This document shows positions 14,594 to 60,060 of a DNA stretch of 64,000 nt, piece after piece. This stretch comes from an uncultured Clostridia bacterium. Lineage in GTDB: Bacteria; Bacillota; Clostridia; Christensenellales; CAMQZB01. Made by a program: the position numbers and the translations under genes. Position 1 is the first letter of the stretch, and each line of letters opens with the position of its first letter. The notes below the pieces were generated by a model, which was not told the DNA's origin, did no database searches, and saw only the letters and a list, made by a program, of their open reading frames with translations. The stretch is taken from positions 22,736-86,735 of the forward strand of contig CAMQZB010000002.1 of NCBI GenBank assembly GCA_947039455.1, written 5' to 3'.

Positions 14594-15463
14594 ATGAAAT
14601 ACACAACTGATTACAAAAGAATATTGGAGTTATTTGAAGAAAACCTTCCAAAGCAATTTGGTGATGGTGGCTTTAATACCCTAGAAAAAAGCATGGAATA
14701 TTCCCTTTTTTCAGGTGGAAAAAGACTTCGTCCAGTACTAATGTTAAAAGTGGGAGAGCTTTTTGGCGCGGACTTTAATCGTGTAATGCCATTTGCTGCC
14801 GCCCTTGAAATGATACACACATATTCTCTAATTCATGACGATTTGCCATGTATGGATAATGACGATTTAAGACGTGGAAAGCCAACAAATCACAAGATTT
14901 TCGGTTACGGAAACGCAGTTCTTGCAGGTGACGGATTACTTAATCTAGCCTTTGAAACTGCAATAAATAACATCACCGACAAGGGTACGTTAACCGCAGC
15001 GAAAGTGTTAAGCCGAGCAAGCGGAAGATGTGGAATGATCTCTGGTCAATCCGCAGATTTGTATTTTGAAAATAAGGAAGCAACTAAAGAAGATTTGGAG
15101 TATATCCACAAAAACAAAACAGCTGCAATAATTCGTTCAGCCTTTGAAATGGGCGGACATCTAGGAAATGCAACAACTTTGGAAATTGTAATACTAGTAG
15201 AATTCGCTAATGCTTTTGGAATGATATTTCAACTTACTGATGATTTATTGGATAAATACGGTGACGAAAAAACACTAGGAAAAACTATAGGTAAAGACGA
15301 AAAGTCATCAAAGTCCTCAAGTTTATATGTAATCGGTGAAGAAAAAACAAGAGAATTAATTTCAACTGAACATGAAAAAGCGTTGAATTTATTAGATAAA
15401 TTATCAGTAAATACAGAATTTTTTAAAGAATTATTAAATGATACAGTGTCAAGAAAAATGTAA
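14594..15463 (+). CDS. ispA: farnesyl/geranyl diphosphate synthase (polyprenyl synthetase)
   Basis: First DDxxD region LIHDDLPCMDNDDLRRG and second motif QLTDDLLD. Confidence 0.9.
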   Translation: MKYTTDYKRILELFEENLPKQFGDGGFNTLEKSMEYSLFSGGKRLRPVLMLKVGELFGADFNRVMPFAAALEMIHTYSLIHDDLPCMDNDDLRRGKPTNHKIFGYGNAVLAGDGLLNLAFETAINNITDKGTLTAAKVLSRASGRCGMISGQSADLYFENKEATKEDLEYIHKNKTAAIIRSAFEMGGHLGNATTLEIVILVEFANAFGMIFQLTDDLLDKYGDEKTLGKTIGKDEKSSKSSSLYVIGEEKTRELISTEHEKALNLLDKLSVNTEFFKELLNDTVSRKM

Positions 15464-15497: not shown

Positions 15498-15526
15498 TTG
15501 ATATTTATATGAATTTATGTTATAAT
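15498..15526 (+). promoter_or_regulatory. near-consensus sigma-A promoter driving the OLE RNA-oapA unit
   Basis: TTGATA (15498-15503), 17-nt spacer, then TGtTATAAT (TATAAT at 15521-15526). Confidence 0.7.
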
Positions 15527-15532
15527 AATGAT

Positions 15533-16175
15533 ATGGTGGTGCAGTATTCTAGTCAGACCAGTTTGCTTTGAAAACGGGGTTAAAATACCGGAAAGGGCAT
15601 ATCGATGAAGTTTCTTGTGCGTGCTTCCGTTGCCCAAACGGGGGGTGCGTACTGGGAGTTAAGGATTATGGGCGTGTCGCAACGGCATGCGACGGGCGAC
15701 CCATTTTCCGTGGAGGCTCAACCTTGTGGGATGCAAATAATTAGATCCTATGAATTGAGATTAAACCTGTCTCGTGGCATTATTAAGCTGCGAACAGTGT
15801 AGCCTGCCTTGAGTGAACATAGCGGATTGAGGAACAACGTATAATTCGGTAGGCCATCGAAGAATTACGATTGCTTTGTGAAACTATGATTTGCAAAAGA
15901 GGCTGGAAGTGAGGTGGTTTGCCAAGGAAAGCTTCTAGACTGTGTGCACAGCATAAATATATTGGGGATTAAAGTGTGGTCTAAAAGGCGATTCAGTTTT
16001 ACATTTGGCGACAGTGTAATGTTTCATTTTAAGGGAAACCGCTCACATCGGTGACGATGAGTATGATACAAGGAAACCTTACTGAACCTAAGCCGCAAAG
16101 TTTACTCAATATATTACCACCTAATTTTGAAACATTTCAAGGACAATTTTTGTTACAATATGAGAATTGTCCTTG
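15533..16175 (+). ncRNA. ole: OLE (ornate, large, extremophilic) RNA
   Basis: About 640 nt with no RBS-preceded ORF, and visibly more G+C-rich than its flanks. It has many local helices (for example GTCGCA/TGCGAC at 15676-15693) and a closing hairpin at 16139-16174. It lies between ispA and a 4-TM protein, followed by tlyA-nadK-argR-recN, which is the neighbourhood described for OLE RNA. I did not align it to a covariance model. Confidence 0.75.
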
Positions 16176-16204
16176 TTTTAATAGTAGTTAAGGAGACGAA
16201 ATTT

Positions 16205-16915
16205 TTGGAAACCAAAAAAGGGGACGACCCGAATTTTAAAAACAGTGACAATGAGGATTTAGAGGACTATAAAATGCCCGATGATTATGCGGAAACGTAT
16301 GAGTTCGTGGAAATACCGTTGCCTAAAAAGGTAATTGAGAAAAAAGTCCGAGTGCAAAAACCTAGATTGACAAAAGAAATGAAAGTGAAACAGCTGAAAA
16401 AACAAGATAAATTTTTCGTAGCAAGAATGTTTATAATGACATTTGCGTTAGCGGTAGTGTTCACGGTAATCACCCAAACGGTGTTATCAGGAGGAAGCCT
16501 AATAATCTCCTTCACCTTGCTTTTCGCACTAGTGGGAATAAGCATTATTTTCGATGTTATCGGAACATCAGCAGCATCTTGTGACATACAGCCCTTTATT
16601 TCAAAGGCAGCAAGAAAAGATAAATCCGCAACAGTAGCAGTGAAATTACTGAAAAATGCTGAGAAAGTATCCAGTTTTTGTAACGACGTAGTAGGAGATA
16701 TTTGCGGTATCGTATCAGGCGGTTGTGCAAGTGCAATCATAATGTCAATTACTGTAGAAGGTACAACGCAGCAAATTATAATTAATATAGTTTTGTCTTC
16801 AATCGTATCAGCAATGACCGTTGGTGGAAAAGCCATAGGAAAATTAACAGCAATAAGATCAAGCGAAAAAATCATAACAATGGTTGCAAACGTCATGGGC
16901 GTATTCAAAAAATAA
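16205..16915 (+). CDS. oapA: OLE-associated membrane protein OapA-like (four TM helices)
   Basis: Basic/acidic N-terminal tail followed by 4 TM segments with embedded acidic motifs (FDVIGT, NDVVGD). It is immediately downstream of the OLE candidate. The in-frame TTG at 16205 lies 9 nt after AGGAG, and the track start at 16127 would fall inside the RNA. Confidence 0.7.
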   Translation: METKKGDDPNFKNSDNEDLEDYKMPDDYAETYEFVEIPLPKKVIEKKVRVQKPRLTKEMKVKQLKKQDKFFVARMFIMTFALAVVFTVITQTVLSGGSLIISFTLLFALVGISIIFDVIGTSAASCDIQPFISKAARKDKSATVAVKLLKNAEKVSSFCNDVVGDICGIVSGGCASAIIMSITVEGTTQQIIINIVLSSIVSAMTVGGKAIGKLTAIRSSEKIITMVANVMGVFKK

Positions 16916-39445: not shown

Positions 39446-39856
39446 ATGACATCACTAATTTACGGAACCAAGGGAACTGGAAAAACAAAACAAATTATCG
39501 CAGCTGCTAATGAAAGTTTAGTAAAAGCAAAAGGTGATATAGTTTACATCACGGATACCAATGAGTACACTATGGAGATTAATCGCAAAATCAGATATAT
39601 TGCTTGTAATGAAGTGAAAGTTTGTAGCGAAGAAAACTTCTTAGCATTTATAAGAGGTATGATTGCCTCAAATTATGATATCGAGAAATTCTATATTGAT
39701 GGAATTGCTAGAATAATCAAGATGGAACTTGGGCAAATGGAAAATTTGTTTAAAGAACTTGAAATGATTTCAGAGAAATATGGCTGTAAATTTGAATTTA
39801 CAATCAGTGCAGACCTTGATGGAATGCCAAAGTTCTTAACTGATATTATAATCTAA
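39446..39856 (+). CDS. 136-aa stand-alone mini P-loop protein, function unknown
   Basis: Walker A at the extreme N-terminus (YGTKGTGKT) and a Walker-B-like KFYIDG. Strong RBS (GGAGGAG). It has its own promoter and terminator. Confidence 0.6.
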   Translation: MTSLIYGTKGTGKTKQIIAAANESLVKAKGDIVYITDTNEYTMEINRKIRYIACNEVKVCSEENFLAFIRGMIASNYDIEKFYIDGIARIIKMELGQMENLFKELEMISEKYGCKFEFTISADLDGMPKFLTDIII

Positions 39857-39921: not shown

Positions 39922-41427
39922 ATGAATTTTATAAGCACAAGAGATGTTACAGAAAAGGTATCATTTTCAAAAGCAATACTTCAAGGATTAACTAGTGAAG
40001 GTGGGCTTTTTGTACCTGAAACCTTCCCAACTATTACTAAAGCCGAATTCGCTGAAATGTTGGACATGTCATATGATGAGCGAGCGAATTTAATACTGTC
40101 AAAATACATGACAGACTTTAAAATTGAAGAAATTGCTGAGTGTACGAAAATCGCATACGATAGGTTTGAAGAAGACCCAGCTCCAGTAGTAAAGATTGAC
40201 GAAGGTGTCTATTTACTAGAGCTTTTTCACGGCCCAACACTAGCATTTAAGGACATGGCGTTAACGCTATTTCCACAAATTCTAGCTAAAGCAAGAGTTA
40301 AAGAAGGTCAAAAAGAGGACATACTAGTACTAGTTGCCACATCAGGTGATACAGGAAAAGCAGCTCTTGAAGGCTTCAAGGATATCCACGGAATAAAAAT
40401 TCTAACTTTCTTCCCAGAAGAGGGTGTATCTCCAATGCAAAAACTTCAAATGACTACTCAAGACGGAGAAAACGTTGGGGTAGTAGCAGTTAAAGGCAAT
40501 TTTGATAATTGTCAAACTGGAGTAAAAGAGATATTCCAAGATAAAGAATTCGAAAGAGAAGTAGCGAAAAACGGTTATGTTTTTTCATCAGCTAACTCTA
40601 TTAATCTAGGTAGATTATTGCCGCAAATCGTCTATTATTTCTCTACATATGCAGATTTAGTTTCTGACGGAGAAATCGAAATGGGTGACAGCATAAACTT
40701 CTCAGTACCAACGGGAAATTTCGGAAATATTCTAGCTGGATACTACGCAATGGAAATGGGTTTACCTGTTAAAAAATTCATATGTGCAAGTAATAGCAAT
40801 AACGTTTTGACGGAGTTTTTCACTGAAGGAAAGTACGATGCGAACCGTGAATTTTTCAAAACAATGTCACCGTCAATGGATATATTAATTTCAAGCAATC
40901 TTGAACGTCTATTATTTCAAGCAAGCGGTTGTGACAGCGAAAGCATAAAATTGCGTATGGAACAATTAAAAGAAACTGGAAAATTCGAAGCAACAGCAAA
41001 AGAAATGGCATTTTTCGATAAATATTTCTACGCAACATCAGCTGACGAAGAAGATACTGCAAGAACTATAAACTTGTTCTATGACGAGTATGGTTACGCA
41101 CTTGATCCGCACACAGCAGTGGGAGTATTTTGTCAAGATGAGTATGTGGTGGAAGAATCTGATTACGATAATTTAGTAGTAATTGCAACAGCAAGCCCAT
41201 ATAAATTCAGTCACGATGTTCTAAAAGCAATCAAAGCAAAAGTAAGTGACGATCCATTTAAAAATGCAAAAACATTAAGAAGCAAAACAGCGGTAGAAAT
41301 ACCGAAAAATATAGCTAATTTAGAATTTGAAGAAGTAAGATTTACTGATGTATTTGAAGTTAGCGAAATGAAAAAAGCGGTTTTATCTTTTATTAAAGGT
41401 GAAATCGGAAAAAGCGAGGCAAAATAA
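39922..41427 (+). CDS. thrC: threonine synthase (long form)
   Basis: PLP-lysine motif FHGPTLAFKDMAL, SSANSIN, and 501 aa. Confidence 0.92.
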   Translation: MNFISTRDVTEKVSFSKAILQGLTSEGGLFVPETFPTITKAEFAEMLDMSYDERANLILSKYMTDFKIEEIAECTKIAYDRFEEDPAPVVKIDEGVYLLELFHGPTLAFKDMALTLFPQILAKARVKEGQKEDILVLVATSGDTGKAALEGFKDIHGIKILTFFPEEGVSPMQKLQMTTQDGENVGVVAVKGNFDNCQTGVKEIFQDKEFEREVAKNGYVFSSANSINLGRLLPQIVYYFSTYADLVSDGEIEMGDSINFSVPTGNFGNILAGYYAMEMGLPVKKFICASNSNNVLTEFFTEGKYDANREFFKTMSPSMDILISSNLERLLFQASGCDSESIKLRMEQLKETGKFEATAKEMAFFDKYFYATSADEEDTARTINLFYDEYGYALDPHTAVGVFCQDEYVVEESDYDNLVVIATASPYKFSHDVLKAIKAKVSDDPFKNAKTLRSKTAVEIPKNIANLEFEEVRFTDVFEVSEMKKAVLSFIKGEIGKSEAK

Positions 41428-41429
41428 TA

Positions 41430-42425
41430 ATGAGCGATAAGAAAAGATTATTTTCAGGAATACAACCAACTGGAAACATAACATTAGGCAACTATATCGG
41501 AGCGTTGAGAAATTTTTCAACATTCCAAGATGAGTTTGACTGCATTTATTGCGTAGTGGATTTACATTCATTAACAGTAAGACAAAACCCAGCACAATTA
41601 AGAAAAAACACCTATGAATTGTTAGCGTTATACCTAGCTTGCGGACTAGATCCAGCGAAATCAACGTTGTTTATTCAATCGCACGTGTCAGAGCATGCGG
41701 AACTAGCGTGGATACTAAATACAATCACTTATGTTGGTGAATTATCACGAATGACACAATTTAAGGATAAATCTAGCAAACATCAAGATAATATAAACAT
41801 GGGCTTGATGGATTACCCAGTGTTGATGGTGTCTGATATCTTGTTATATCAAACAGCACTAGTACCAATTGGAGCTGATCAAAAGCAACATTTAGAACTT
41901 ACTCGTGACATTGCCCATAGGTTCAATACATCATACAGCGATACTTTCGTAGTGCCAGAACCTTTTATACCAAAAGCAGGTGCAAGAATAATGTCCCTAG
42001 CTGAACCTACATCAAAAATGAGCAAATCTGATGAAAATATCAAAGGATTTATTTCATTAACTGACGACGACGAAACTATTCGTCGCAAACTGAAAAGTGC
42101 AGTAACTGATAGTGGAAATGAGATTGTAGCAAGAGATGATAAACACGGTGTAACAAACTTGTTGACAATCTATGCAACGCTAAATAATATAACAATGCAA
42201 GAAGCTGAAAAAGCCTTTGTAGGTGTTAGTTACGCTGATTTTAAAATGGCAGTAGCTGATATTATAATCGAAACAATCGCACCAATTAGAGAACTTAAAA
42301 ACGAAATTCTTGCTGATAAAGGAAACCTTGACAAAGTGTTAACTGATGGAGCGGAAAGAGCAAGATTTATGGCTAGAAAAACTTTGTCAAAAGTATACAA
42401 AAAGGTAGGTTTGATTCAGAGATAA
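41430..42425 (+). CDS. trpS: tryptophan--tRNA ligase
   Basis: GIQPTGNITLGNYIG (HIGH-like region), GADQKQH, and KMSKS. Confidence 0.97.
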   Translation: MSDKKRLFSGIQPTGNITLGNYIGALRNFSTFQDEFDCIYCVVDLHSLTVRQNPAQLRKNTYELLALYLACGLDPAKSTLFIQSHVSEHAELAWILNTITYVGELSRMTQFKDKSSKHQDNINMGLMDYPVLMVSDILLYQTALVPIGADQKQHLELTRDIAHRFNTSYSDTFVVPEPFIPKAGARIMSLAEPTSKMSKSDENIKGFISLTDDDETIRRKLKSAVTDSGNEIVARDDKHGVTNLLTIYATLNNITMQEAEKAFVGVSYADFKMAVADIIIETIAPIRELKNEILADKGNLDKVLTDGAERARFMARKTLSKVYKKVGLIQR

Positions 42426-43303
42426 TGTTTGGATATATACTACCCGAGAGGGCTCATCTATATATAAAGGATTTTGATTTATACAGAAATTTCTATTGCG
42501 GAATATGCAAATCAATGGGAAGGCAGTTCGGTCAAAAAACCCGTTTTTCAATAAATTATGACATTACTTTTTTAACAATAGTAGTGCATAATTTTCTTGG
42601 TGTTGACGTATCATACGAAACGCTAAAATGTATTACAAAACCATTTAACAAATCTAAACAAATGGTGAAAGAGAACGAATTAACTGACAAGATGAGTGCT
42701 ATTAACGTAATTTTGTGTTACTATAAAGTTTTAGACGATTGTATTGACGGAAACAAAACTTCAAGAAAAGTACTAGCAAAATCTTTGAAAAAAGCAAAAA
42801 ACAAAGCATCTTTGCAAGTCCCTGGTGTTGAAGAGATTATAGCAAAACGCTATGAGAATTTGAGAGCACTTGAAGGTAATAAAGAAACTAGTATTGACAA
42901 AGTAGCTGATGAATTTGCCTCAATGATGGGGGAAATATGTGATTTTGTTGTGGGCGAGAAAAAACAAGACAATTTTACCAAATTGTGTTATAATGTAGGA
43001 AAGTGGATATACTTAATTGATGCCCTAGACGATTTTGATGATGACTTGAAAACAAATGATTACAATCTTTTTGTTTTAAATTATCCTGAAATTAAAACAT
43101 TCCACCAGCTAATGGAAGAGCACGGAAATGATGTGTCTTTCACATTTGCAACTACAATAAATTCTATAACAGAAAACTTTAAAGAGATTAAATTCTCATT
43201 CAATCAAGACTTAATAAATAACGTGGTTTTCAGAGGTATATCATTAATGACCAAAGGAATCATGAGAGGTGAAAGATGCAAACAAGATTATTTGAAATTT
43301 TAA
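42425..43303 (+). CDS. uncharacterised protein with an N-terminal Cys motif (resembles the family I recall as DUF5685)
   Basis: The N-terminus is MFGYILPE...LYRNFYCGICKSMG. The rest is helical. It overlaps trpS by 1 nt (TAATG) and the next gene by 28 nt. Confidence 0.6.
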   Translation: MFGYILPERAHLYIKDFDLYRNFYCGICKSMGRQFGQKTRFSINYDITFLTIVVHNFLGVDVSYETLKCITKPFNKSKQMVKENELTDKMSAINVILCYYKVLDDCIDGNKTSRKVLAKSLKKAKNKASLQVPGVEEIIAKRYENLRALEGNKETSIDKVADEFASMMGEICDFVVGEKKQDNFTKLCYNVGKWIYLIDALDDFDDDLKTNDYNLFVLNYPEIKTFHQLMEEHGNDVSFTFATTINSITENFKEIKFSFNQDLINNVVFRGISLMTKGIMRGERCKQDYLKF

Positions 43304-43995
43304 ATTTAATGTCAAGTGCTTCAAGTGAAGAAGTAAATACAGCCTACCAAGCTAGAAAATCACAATTACGTGAAGATATGTTCTTGGAAGGAGTAGCAGG
43401 CAACAACGCAGCGAGAGATCTTACTGCCCTTGAAGATGCTTACCGTGGTTATCTTGATTATTCAAAGTATGATTCTAGTAATAATTCAACAAACAGTACA
43501 GGCGGAACAACTGTCTATGACGATGTTGAAGCATTTGTAAAAGCTGGAAAATTAAACGAAGCCCAAAGTCATCTTGATAACATACAAACAAGAGACGGAA
43601 GCTGGCATTATTTCCAAGCAATGATATATTACAAAAAAGATTGGTATACAGATTGCAAGAAACATCTTGAAAAAGCATTGCAACTTGACAGTGGAAACAC
43701 AAAATATAGAGAAACTTTAAGCAAACTATCTGAAAAAATGTCAGGTGGTCGTGCTCAACCAGTTAATAGACAAAATCCAAACGGACAAAATCAAAACGCA
43801 CAGAACCCAAATGGACAAAATCCAAACGGAAAACAAGGCGAATGGTGGAAAGAAAACGATAACGTAGACAACAATGGTCAACCTGATTGGAACGAAAACA
43901 ATAGACAAATGGGTGGCTGTAATGAGAGCATGAATTGTTGTACGCAAATGTTGTGTATGAACCTATTCTGCAACTGTTGTGGTGGAGGCTGTTAG
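43276..43995 (+). CDS. degenerate J-domain-like / TPR-like protein with Q/N/P repeats and a Cys-rich C-terminus
   Basis: LFEILNL..SASSEEVNTAYQARKSQL resembles J-domain helices I-II, but no HPD tripeptide follows. The middle is a TPR-like helical segment. NPNGQ-type repeats come next. The last 27 residues contain 8 Cys. Confidence 0.6.
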   Translation: MQTRLFEILNLMSSASSEEVNTAYQARKSQLREDMFLEGVAGNNAARDLTALEDAYRGYLDYSKYDSSNNSTNSTGGTTVYDDVEAFVKAGKLNEAQSHLDNIQTRDGSWHYFQAMIYYKKDWYTDCKKHLEKALQLDSGNTKYRETLSKLSEKMSGGRAQPVNRQNPNGQNQNAQNPNGQNPNGKQGEWWKENDNVDNNGQPDWNENNRQMGGCNESMNCCTQMLCMNLFCNCCGGGC

Positions 43996-43998
43996 TTC

Positions 43999-44511
43999 AT
44001 GAAAAACACAAAGAAAATTTCGCTGTCGGGTATCTCGACAGCGTTTTGTGCAATATTTCTGATAATGGGAAACACAATACAAGTGCTAAGTTATTCATTT
44101 TATCTATTAGCTTCATTAGGATTAGCAATTCCATTTGCCACAAATGAGATTAAATGGAGCTTCCTATCATTTATAGTTGCAAGTATAGTGGGATTTATCT
44201 TTTTACCTGATATAATAGCAATGTTTTCATTTATTGTGTTCTTCGGACCATACGTGCTTATTGTAAGTATCCTAAAAATGAAAAGGGTTAAAAAAACGCT
44301 ACAGTATATAATAAAAGCGATATTTTTCGCATTATCAATATACTTAATGTATCAATTCTCAACAGTATTCATAGACCTGAACGCATATAATTTCCCAGTG
44401 GCAGTATTGCTAGGAGGGGCATTCGTAGTGATGTTCGTGTATGATTATCTAATGACAAGAATTATGTTCCAGTTAGATAGACGTGTTCGAAGATTTATGA
44501 AAATGGTTTAA
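43999..44511 (+). CDS. small polytopic membrane protein (about 5 TM segments), function unknown
   Basis: Hydrophobic profile. It starts 3 nt after the previous stop and is followed by a terminator. Confidence 0.6.
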   Translation: MKNTKKISLSGISTAFCAIFLIMGNTIQVLSYSFYLLASLGLAIPFATNEIKWSFLSFIVASIVGFIFLPDIIAMFSFIVFFGPYVLIVSILKMKRVKKTLQYIIKAIFFALSIYLMYQFSTVFIDLNAYNFPVAVLLGGAFVVMFVYDYLMTRIMFQLDRRVRRFMKMV

Positions 44512-44525
44512 ATATAAGTAAATTT

Positions 44526-44556
44526 CAAAAAGAGTGGATTTCCACTCTTTTTTTTG
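44526..44556 (+). terminator. rho-independent terminator
   Basis: AGAGTGGA / TCCACTCT stem followed by TTTTTTTT. Confidence 0.85.
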
Positions 44557-44715
44557 TTATATTAACATGAAAATCTTTAAAATACCCATAAAACACACCT
44601 AAACTAAAATAAAAGTAAACAATCGATAAAAAGAGAAAATTAGTAACAAAAATCCTATTGCATAACCAACAAAAAGCAAATATAATGTATTTATCTCATA
44701 TTAGGAGGCGTACAT

Positions 44716-45063
44716 ATGTATATGGAGAAAGATTTGCTATTATTGGACAAAAAGACTCAAGGCGAATTGTATAATTACTTACCAGATGATCATATAATAG
44801 AAGATTTAGCAGGGGTATTTGCAGTATTTTCAGAACCAACAAGACTGAAAATCTTATCAATATTATCGGTAACGGAATTATGTGTTACGGACATTTCAAG
44901 AGTATTAGATATAAATCAAACCACAATTTCACATCAACTTCACGGTTTAGCAAAAATAGGGTTTGTAAAAGCAAAAAGACAAGGCAAAATCAAATTCTAT
45001 TCAATAGCTGATAAAGTTGTTGGAAAAATATTAGTACATGGCGTGGAATATCTAGGTTATTGA
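44716..45063 (+). CDS. ArsR/SmtB family transcriptional regulator (orphan)
   Basis: FAVFSEPTRLKILSIL...ELCVTDIS..L.INQTTISHQLHGL winged-HTH signature. RBS is AGGAGG. Confidence 0.88.
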   Translation: MYMEKDLLLLDKKTQGELYNYLPDDHIIEDLAGVFAVFSEPTRLKILSILSVTELCVTDISRVLDINQTTISHQLHGLAKIGFVKAKRQGKIKFYSIADKVVGKILVHGVEYLGY

Positions 45064-59709: not shown

Positions 59710-60060
59710 GGGGGTGTACCGGATTCGATTGGGAAGATAAGGTGCTTTGTATAAGCGTGTCGAAGGCTCGGCTTCGTTAAAACGGAAACAATTTTAATTG
59801 CTAACAGAAATACTGTAGCTTTAGCTGCCTAGTCAGCTTTTGTCGTTTGGAGTAACCTACGGACTCAACTCGGCATCAATTTAGTAGGGTACATGTGAGA
59901 GCAGGAGTGATCTAGCCTACCTCACAGGACACAAAGCGGATTCGTCAGTATAGGATTATGTCGTTGTAAGCCGTACTTGATGTAAAAATTAGCGACTACA
60001 CACGTAGAAGACTTTGTGTCGCTTTCCAACACAGGGGTTCAACTCCCCTCACCTCCACCA
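59710..60060 (+). ncRNA. ssrA: transfer-messenger RNA (tmRNA)
   Basis: The 5' end GGGGGTGTACCGGATTCGA pairs with the 3' end GGGGTTCAACTCCCCTCACCTCCACCA (tRNA-Ala-like acceptor/T arm, encoded CCA). The tag reading frame GCT AAC AGA AAT ACT GTA GCT TTA GCT GCC TAG (59800-59832) encodes ANRNTVALAA. Confidence 0.97.

Follow-up and report, generated by a model that had tools for sequence, protein, structure and literature searches.

A conserved gene pair of Clostridia combines a DUF5685 protein of predicted isoprenoid-synthase fold with a J-like protein carrying a cysteine-rich tail

Introduction

J-proteins are attached to membranes in various ways: DNAJC5 is palmitoylated, Ydj1/DNAJA1 is farnesylated and E. 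coli DjlA is held by a transmembrane (TM) anchor. Gene pairs in which a prenylating enzyme adjoins its substrate are exemplified by comQ-comX. [quoted passage not shown] Here we analyse a gene pair which shares features with each of these systems. It lies in a stretch of 64,000 nucleotides from an uncultured Clostridia bacterium (assembly GCA_947039455.1, contig CAMQZB010000002.1, positions 22,736 to 86,735), which as a whole is referred to as the window and on whose forward strand all features described below are located. According to the list of open reading frames (ORFs), the pair encodes a DUF5685 protein of 292 residues (P1, 42425–43303) and a J-like protein of 239 residues (P2, 43276–43995), in which the family alignment reveals J-like and TPR-like domains followed by a Q/N-rich linker and a Cys-rich tail.

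A preliminary description made from the letters of the window alone had grouped both genes with a third one (P3) into a conserved module of unknown function. The literature agrees with the latter term, as searches of it yielded a single incidental listing of DUF5685 and no study of DUF5685, of PF18937 or of the pair. Among cultivated carriers, C. difficile R20291 is reported to encode DUF5685 (PMC9403866).

Results

The neighbourhood of P1 was compared in two sets of loci, namely clade 1, consisting of 80 species-representative genomes mostly of Christensenellaceae, Ca. Scatosoma and uncultured Clostridia (P1 38–44% identical), and clade 2, consisting of 80 metagenome loci with a divergent DUF5685 subclade (P1 25–37% identical to that of the window). 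The two clades share 25–40% P1 identity. A P2 orthologue follows P1 in 78/80 loci of clade 1, the contigs of the other two ending within 150 nt of P1, and likewise in 78/80 loci of clade 2, where the other two are truncated. Taking as testable those loci whose contig continues past P1, the pair is found in the same order and on the same strand in 160/160 cases, which include both clades, Pusillibacter, Subdoligranulum and two 'Bacteriophage sp.' contigs, the roughly 2,500 remote clusters of DUF5685 (E-values from 1e-30 to 1e-10) lying beyond the sample. The statement of the preliminary description that DUF5685 proteins are commonly adjacent to small DnaJ-like proteins in Clostridia is thereby borne out. 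The two genes overlap in 58/78 clade-2 and 30/78 clade-1 loci. Three clade-1 loci (L052, L062 and L075) carry about 1.2 kb of extra sequence between the DUF5685 and the J-protein gene, with gaps of 1225–1251 nt.

P1 matches Pfam PF18937 (DUF5685) with an E-value of 7.7e-72 and 242.4 bits (cut-off 26.7) over residues 1–274, in keeping with the resemblance to this family noted before. NCBIfam contains no model for P1, the sole hint being a weak match to HpnD, a presqualene diphosphate synthase (E = 0.069). DUF5685 is a large family, with 470 matches in a word-seeded search; an exhaustive profile search returned 5,618 cluster representatives (50% identity) when the cut-off was set to E ≤ 1e-3, and 1,533 when it was tightened to E ≤ 1e-30. 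P1 is a soluble protein, and its AlphaFold2 model, calculated from a 42-sequence alignment, is all-helical with a pLDDT of 93.5 and a pTM of 0.91. When this model was compared to the PDB by Foldseek, the top 50 matches were without exception enzymes that act in isoprenoid metabolism and adopt the class I terpenoid fold or a related one. The best match is the prenyltransferase MoeN5 (E = 7.5e-4), and further ones are octa-, hepta- and hexaprenyl as well as geranylgeranyl diphosphate synthases, the dehydrosqualene synthase CrtM, a sesquiterpene synthase and, at rank 48, a UbiA prenyltransferase. The TM-scores range from 0.5 to 0.62 and the E-values from 7.5e-4 to 5e-2, with probabilities of about 1.0 and alignments of about 230–355 columns.

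Residue conservation, counted over 408 non-identical DUF5685 sequences, is concentrated in three places. A three-cysteine (Cys3) site is composed of the CxxC half C25-G-I-C28 (42497–42508) and of C69 (42629–42631); all three cysteines are 100% conserved, in contrast to just 61% for H55. The first Asp-rich motif, D104-D-C-I-D108 (42734–42748), is of the DDxxD/DxxxD type with D104 and D108 100% conserved, and in the model it is situated at the C-terminal end of helix 85–109. The second acidic motif, D199-x3-D203-x3-D207...N214, preceded by Y196 (43019–43066 for D199 to N214), is invariant as well yet non-canonical: Y196, D199, A200, D203 and N214 are 100% and D207 is 99% conserved. In the model D199, D203 and D207 are spaced i/i+4/i+8 on a single helix (182–209), a spacing that appears to resemble the NSE/DTE motif, with which class I terpene synthases bind Mg. 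In addition, E150 is conserved to about 100% and the N-terminal M-F-G-Y to 88–98%. Hence the fold of a class I isoprenoid synthase, with acidic motifs that are intact and putatively bind metal, is well supported by the predicted structure, although as judged from sequence P1 is placed in no named enzyme family, membership in any of them not being established. The earlier verdict that no function is assignable was too pessimistic, given that the fold, the invariant Asp-rich motifs and the Cys3 site of P1 are informative.

The N-terminal part of P2 is less easily recognised. When P2 alone was searched against Pfam, nothing but a TPR_2 match below threshold emerged, DnaJ being unmatched at E ≤ 1, and a word-seeded search retrieved just six relatives. 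A family alignment was built with the orthologues recovered from the genomic loci, and 49 members were scanned against Pfam. Thus, of the two Pfam models proposed for checking in the preliminary description, DUF5685 is matched by P1 and DnaJ (PF00226), unmatched by P2 alone, is matched by 44/49 family members (best E = 1.7e-9). The family profile aligns with solved J-domains over the full domain at E-values of about 1e-6 (DNAJA3, E. coli DnaJ and others) and with DNAJC5 at E = 1.4e-5. In these alignments 's-e-d' is positioned opposite H-P-D. Residues 1–62 of P2 (43276–43461) are a J-domain homologue in which R-E-D takes the place of H-P-D.

The preliminary description had characterised P2 as J-like but devoid of HPD, which holds for the window, where HPD is absent from P2 and from every reading frame of the region, but not for the family. 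None of the 76 unique clade-1 orthologues contains HPD; they exhibit x-E-D/E-G-R variants, behind which a GEAGNEAA loop has newly become conserved. HPD is present, by contrast, in 60/61 clade-2 orthologues, which possess a canonical KYHPDN J-domain (AYRELARKYHPDNY). Because HPD is kept in nearly all of the latter, the P2 family is ancestrally, or at least commonly, one of canonical J-proteins, and by the same sequence comparison the lineage of the window has lost the Hsp70-stimulating tripeptide while the rest of P2 was retained. Subdoligranulum variabile P2 reads KYNPDNY, i.e. NPD with His replaced by Asn, a degeneration of HPD independent of that in the window lineage.

Two further elements of P2, the TPR-like domain and the Cys-rich tail, the latter being its best-conserved feature, had been overlooked. 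The TPR-like helical domain comprises residues 80–155 (43513–43740) with the invariant positions AQ..LD, R106, W110-H-Y, W123 and K143-Y; with 23.9 bits over residues 111–141 of the window protein, TPR_2 (PF07719) stays below its cut-off of 27, and it is matched by 27/49 family members. The domain is followed by a flexible low-complexity linker of variable length, for which the window shows an N/Q-rich version of exceptional length. The polypeptide ends in the tail GCNESMNCCTQMLCMNLFCNCCGGGC (residues 214–239, 43915–43992) with 8 Cys in 25 residues. All 137 full-length orthologues (76 of clade 1 and 61 of clade 2) end in such a tail, which is about 22 residues long and contains 5–10 Cys (32–37% Cys); the rest of these proteins contains about one Cys. 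Cysteine is the sole universally enriched nucleophile of the tails; Trp occurs in 28/137 (20/76 in clade 1, 8/61 in clade 2) and is missing from that of the window. Most tails terminate in C-x, CC or CxC. The tail is preceded by MGG in the window and in clade 1, but not in clade 2.

Alignment of the 122 unique tails reveals one Cys column that is 100% and one that is 98% occupied, while the others reach 25–83% with shifting position, giving 59 distinct spacing patterns; the invariant cysteines of the window tail are C222 and C235. This incomplete fixation of the Cys positions is more easily reconciled with a tail that is modified or forms a cysteine string than with a rigid metal finger. With a mean hydropathy of about 1.0 the tail is too polar, and moreover too short, for a normal TM helix. 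Between the window and four distant orthologues the tail is 31–62% identical, as compared to 21–28% for the J and TPR domains, and the constraint on the tail is consequently at least as strong as that on the folded domains. The tail of one of the contigs labelled as phage (MT835652.1), SCCTQMLCLNLLCNCCCCGGGF, is nearly identical to that of the window. A search of the window tail against PDB sequences returned just compositional, non-significant matches to Cys-rich toxins (E ≥ 0.08).

The flanking genes differ between the clades. Upstream of P1, clade 1 has trpS in 51/80, thrC in 51/80 and a small P-loop ORF in 63/80 loci, and all three are found in 0/80 loci of clade 2. There, in Oscillospiraceae, the pair lies between cdaA-cdaR-rseC and yicC-DUF370-gmk-rpoZ-priA, with an RseC/MucC-family gene carrying a Cys motif directly upstream in 47/80 loci. 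At a distance of about 3–5 kb upstream, ispD-ispF is encountered in 16/80 clade-2 loci and a class V aminotransferase of cysteine-desulfurase-like fold in 20/80. The clade-2 arrangement is also that of Pusillibacter faecalis MM59 (NZ_AP023421.1, 157565–168404), with ispD-ispF about 4 kb upstream; in RefSeq its two products are entitled 'DUF5685 family protein' and 'J domain-containing protein', and the 504-kb 'plasmid' record is effectively a second chromosome, since it carries core housekeeping genes. In the cultured species Subdoligranulum variabile (OY725846.1, 4965–7123) the full trio is followed by glmS. Two faecal contigs deposited as 'UNVERIFIED: Bacteriophage sp.' (MT835652.1, 6001–7483, and MT835850.1, 822–2412) contain the pair, with P1 27–30% identical and with HPD and Cys tail in the J-protein, beside genes resembling aminotransferases; both contigs probably stem from bacteria and were mislabelled as phage.

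In the window, P3 (43999–44511, 170 residues in the ORF list) displays 5–6 hydrophobic segments in the hydropathy profile, suggesting a polytopic membrane protein with 5–6 TM helices, close to the five of the preliminary description. Neither Pfam nor NCBIfam has a family match for window P3; DUF2232 (YybS-like) is weakly matched by 8/51 orthologues, with a best E-value of 9e-4 under any curated threshold. P3 is present in 65/80 clade-1 and 36/80 clade-2 loci as well as in S. variabile, and it is absent from at least 18 loci in which YicC follows P2 directly. It is a frequent yet dispensable accessory. The triad described earlier is thus a conserved module, but its constant unit is the P1-P2 pair, as the pair persists in every testable locus and P3 does not.

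The three genes are tightly packed, and direct reading of the junctions reproduced the distances reported before. The trpS stop and the P1 start share one base (TAATG), P2 starts 28 nt ahead of the P1 stop behind a strong ribosome-binding site, GAGAGGTG (43264–43271), and 3 nt (TTC) separate the P2 stop from the ATG of P3, with GGAGG upstream. The location of GAGAGGTG within the 3' end of P1 indicates translational coupling of P2 to P1. Since P1 and P2 orthologues keep order and strand throughout the sampled loci, the genes are real and not chance ORFs; on the metagenome scaffold from which the window derives (ENA ERZ28620936, 186 kb), the same three genes of 292, 239 and 170 residues had been predicted by an independent gene caller. 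The strong terminator postulated at the end of the module is evident as well: a hairpin with an 11-bp stem (44527–44552; ΔG −14.7 kcal/mol, z = −5.0 against shuffled sequences) and a T-run complete an intrinsic terminator (44527–44559) that closes the unit thrC-trpS-P1-P2-P3. No T-box or riboswitch was detected at Rfam gathering thresholds anywhere in the window, including the regions upstream of thrC, trpS and P1.

Coupling to thrC (39922–41427) and trpS (41430–42425, PF00579), which had been regarded as unusual, was rejected as a functional feature in view of the clade counts given above; trpS is co-transcribed here and lies outside the conserved module, and the linkage is lineage-specific local synteny. 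For the same reason the small P-loop ORF upstream of thrC (39446–39856, 136 residues, Walker A GTKGTGKT, no family assignment) was rejected as a fourth member. Just downstream of the terminator an ArsR/SmtB-family metalloregulator is encoded (44716–45063, NF033788 E = 4.7e-21), which is probably unrelated to the module because it adjoins it in only 1/80 clade-1 loci.

Elsewhere the window contains an IspA-type prenyl diphosphate synthase gene (14594–15463, PF00348 E = 3e-53). Downstream of it lies a full-length OLE RNA (15520–16136, Rfam RF01071, 452 bits), which is followed by a 262-residue membrane ORF without Pfam match (16127–16915), at a position taken by OapA in other OLE loci. Up to 18701 there are genes which by the appearance of their sequences are TlyA-type methyltransferase-like and NAD kinase-like. 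A tmRNA gene is found at 59710–60060 (Rfam RF00023, 130.6 bits).

Discussion

We tentatively propose, with a confidence that is low, that P1 is a prenyl-transferring enzyme dependent on Mg2+ and on a metal in the Cys3 site, which would modify the Cys tail of P2 and thereby tether this J/TPR adaptor to the membrane. P1 would bind an allylic prenyl diphosphate via Mg2+ held by the acidic motifs, with farnesyl or geranylgeranyl diphosphate possibly supplied by the IspA-type synthase of the window, would ionise it and would then prenylate the tail at one or several thiolates. The Cys3 site may serve as holder of a metal for Zn-type thiolate activation, as it occurs in protein farnesyltransferase, BHMT and MetH, or may be structural. 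The lipidated tail would fix P2 to the membrane, possibly beside P3. In HPD-bearing lineages membrane-bound P2 could recruit DnaK to this place, while in the lineage of the window the J-like fold with its newly acquired, conserved GEAGNEAA loop would operate independently of Hsp70 stimulation. By translational coupling, enzyme and substrate would be made in a constant ratio. The adjacency of P1 and P2, surviving wholly different flanking genes, suggests such a relationship, as do the predicted fold and the invariant acidic and Cys residues of P1 and the strong conservation of the P2 tail at the end of a variable linker.

With greater reserve still, DUF5685 might represent the first endogenous bacterial protein S-prenyltransferase, a terpenoid-fold enzyme with a Cys3 site that perhaps acts on several positions of the P2 cysteine string and is convergent with eukaryotic CaaX/Rab prenylation. 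Since the enzymes covered by the above-mentioned review target tryptophan, the acceptor, cysteine, would then be a new one, and with a folded cytoplasmic protein the kind of substrate would be new as well.

Several points weigh against prenylation. The mechanism is deduced from fold, motifs and gene pairing, with lipid transfer itself inferred throughout. The best structural match has an E-value of only 7.5e-4 at a root mean square deviation of about 5 Å. PF00348, PF00494 and the terpene-synthase models of Pfam match neither P1 nor 30 divergent DUF5685 members at E ≤ 10, and hhalign comparisons of P1 to E. coli IspA (E = 0.39) and to the IspA of the window (E = 0.35) are not significant; even so, the single alignment obtained each time, itself non-significant, superimposes '..YYKVLDDC' of P1 on the FARM helix '..YSLIHDDL' of IspA. 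The P1 profile retrieved from PDB sequences just spurious designed helical repeats and the octaprenyl diphosphate synthase 1vg3 at E = 0.45. Furthermore, all characterised trans-IDS-like peptide prenyltransferases modify Trp and not Cys, the Cys-rich tail could equally bind metals, and the model of P3, based on a 5-sequence alignment, is unusable with a pLDDT of 52.

Alternatively, P1 could act on small molecules, as a terpene synthase or cyclase or as a prenyltransferase of lipids or metabolites, with P2 as its dedicated J/TPR chaperone or scaffold whose tail binds the membrane or a partner. The class I fold and the acidic motifs agree with this, the top structural match MoeN5 acts on a lipid, and J-proteins often serve a single client, such as HscB with IscU. 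Nevertheless we regard this explanation as doubtful. It accounts neither for the Cys tail being better conserved than any other part of P2 nor for the survival of the pair once HPD was lost, and it offers no reason for a soluble helical enzyme of 290 residues to need a dedicated co-chaperone in every genome. The proximity of ispD-ispF in Pusillibacter and in some clade-2 loci, which might be quoted in its favour, belongs to a larger housekeeping synteny block.

A role in metal or Fe-S handling, in which the Cys3 site and the P2 tail bind or transfer a metal or cluster and the J-domain recruits DnaK in the manner of HscB/HscA-IscU, or in which the tail forms a metallothionein-like buffer, is unlikely in our view. 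It would account for the three invariant cysteines of P1, for the 5–10 cysteines of the tail with their two invariant positions and, in clade 2, for the neighbouring RseC/MucC-family and class V aminotransferase genes; the ArsR/SmtB gene of the window would fit as well, if it were not confined to one of the clade-1 loci. However, the neighbouring genes differ between the clades, the spacing of the tail cysteines is far more variable than in defined metal sites, and the invariant DxxxD and D-x3-D-x3-D motifs as well as the isoprenoid-synthase fold would be without explanation.

Very improbable is that P2 is the long-leader precursor of a ribosomally synthesised and post-translationally modified peptide (RiPP), the tail being cleaved off after MGG, modified by P1 and exported, with P3 providing immunity or export. 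Gly-Gly indeed stands ahead of the tail in the window and in clade 1, the ComQ/ComX and PalQ systems are RiPP-like, and the compositional matches of the tail are to Cys-rich toxins, albeit non-significant ones; but clade 2 lacks MGG, the neighbourhoods examined contain neither a C39 peptidase nor an ABC transporter nor any further RiPP gene, the 'leader' is a conserved J and TPR protein, and unlike accessory RiPP clusters the pair resides in housekeeping operons of essentially every member of large clades. That the three genes are mere syntenic neighbours, for which their embedding among unrelated housekeeping genes might speak, can scarcely be credited, as the P1-P2 pair stays together, usually overlapping, in all testable loci while all flanking genes change. 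A substantial remainder of the probability belongs to something other than the explanations named here.

DUF5685 genes form part of core housekeeping operons and are spread over Clostridia dominant in animal guts, among them Christensenellales-like bacteria and Oscillospiraceae. A prenyltransferase/terpene-synthase fold together with a constant Cys-tailed J-partner turns this anonymous family into a testable hypothesis. Should prenylation by P1 be true, cysteine prenylation of a cytoplasmic protein would be added to bacterial cell biology, and trans-IDS-like prenyltransferases would extend beyond Trp. P2 would be the bacterial counterpart of farnesylated Ydj1 or of the palmitoylated cysteine-string protein, bringing DnaK or another partner to the membrane, and it would illustrate how Firmicutes, which are not known to possess DjlA, place a J-protein there. 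Irrespective of this, HPD has been lost repeatedly, in favour of R-E-D in the window and of NPD in Subdoligranulum, from proteins that are otherwise retained, which constitutes a natural experiment on Hsp70-independent J-like domains.

Comparison with known systems

The best structural matches of the predicted P1 model are MoeN5, IspA, IspB, HepPPS and CrtM (TM-scores as given above). The first DDxxD of P1 is located at the end of a helix equivalent to that of the trans-polyprenyl synthases, according to a non-significant alignment. In contrast, the second motif is D-x3-D-x3-D...N instead of their second DDxxD, about 95 residues separate the two motifs of P1, and significant sequence similarity to MoeN5, the trans-polyprenyl synthases and CrtM is absent. 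Compared to MoeN5 and the IspA group, P1 has the extra CxxC...C site and the conserved MFGY N-terminus.

With ComQ/ComX, PalQ and the P domain of ChrPC the pair shares a fold of the isoprenoid-synthase superfamily, Asp-rich motifs and an enzyme gene beside a gene with a conserved C-terminal acceptor region. ComQ, PalQ and ChrPC, however, match polyprenyl-synthase models, which DUF5685 does not, and DUF5685 has the invariant Cys3 site in addition. The characterised enzymes of the ComQ/PalQ type prenylate Trp, which just 28/137 P2 tails contain, and their substrates are short exported peptides, whereas P2 is a J/TPR protein of 200–240 residues.

The class C DnaJ-TPR proteins are defined by architecture only, and no described member carries a Cys tail or has a DUF5685 partner. 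DNAJC5, Ydj1 and DjlA resemble P2 in combining a J-domain with a membrane-targeting element, which is putative in P2, and DNAJC5 carries a cysteine string. Unlike in these proteins, the cysteine string of P2 is found at the extreme C-terminus and accompanied by a TPR-like domain, and the window copy is devoid of HPD; common descent is supported for the J-domain only, the lipidation of P2 being hypothetical.

Farnesyltransferase (FTase), geranylgeranyltransferase I (GGTase-I) and Rab geranylgeranyltransferase (RabGGTase) are α-α barrel heterodimers, whereas P1 is a predicted class I terpenoid bundle of putative activity, and the tail of P2 has no CaaX box and offers many cysteines in place of the one or two of eukaryotic substrates. 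The likeness to these enzymes would consist in S-prenylation of C-terminal cysteines, as proposed for P1, in the use of Mg2+ for the diphosphate and in a Zn-activated thiolate, and the C-x, CC and CxC ends of the P2 tails are reminiscent of Rab termini.

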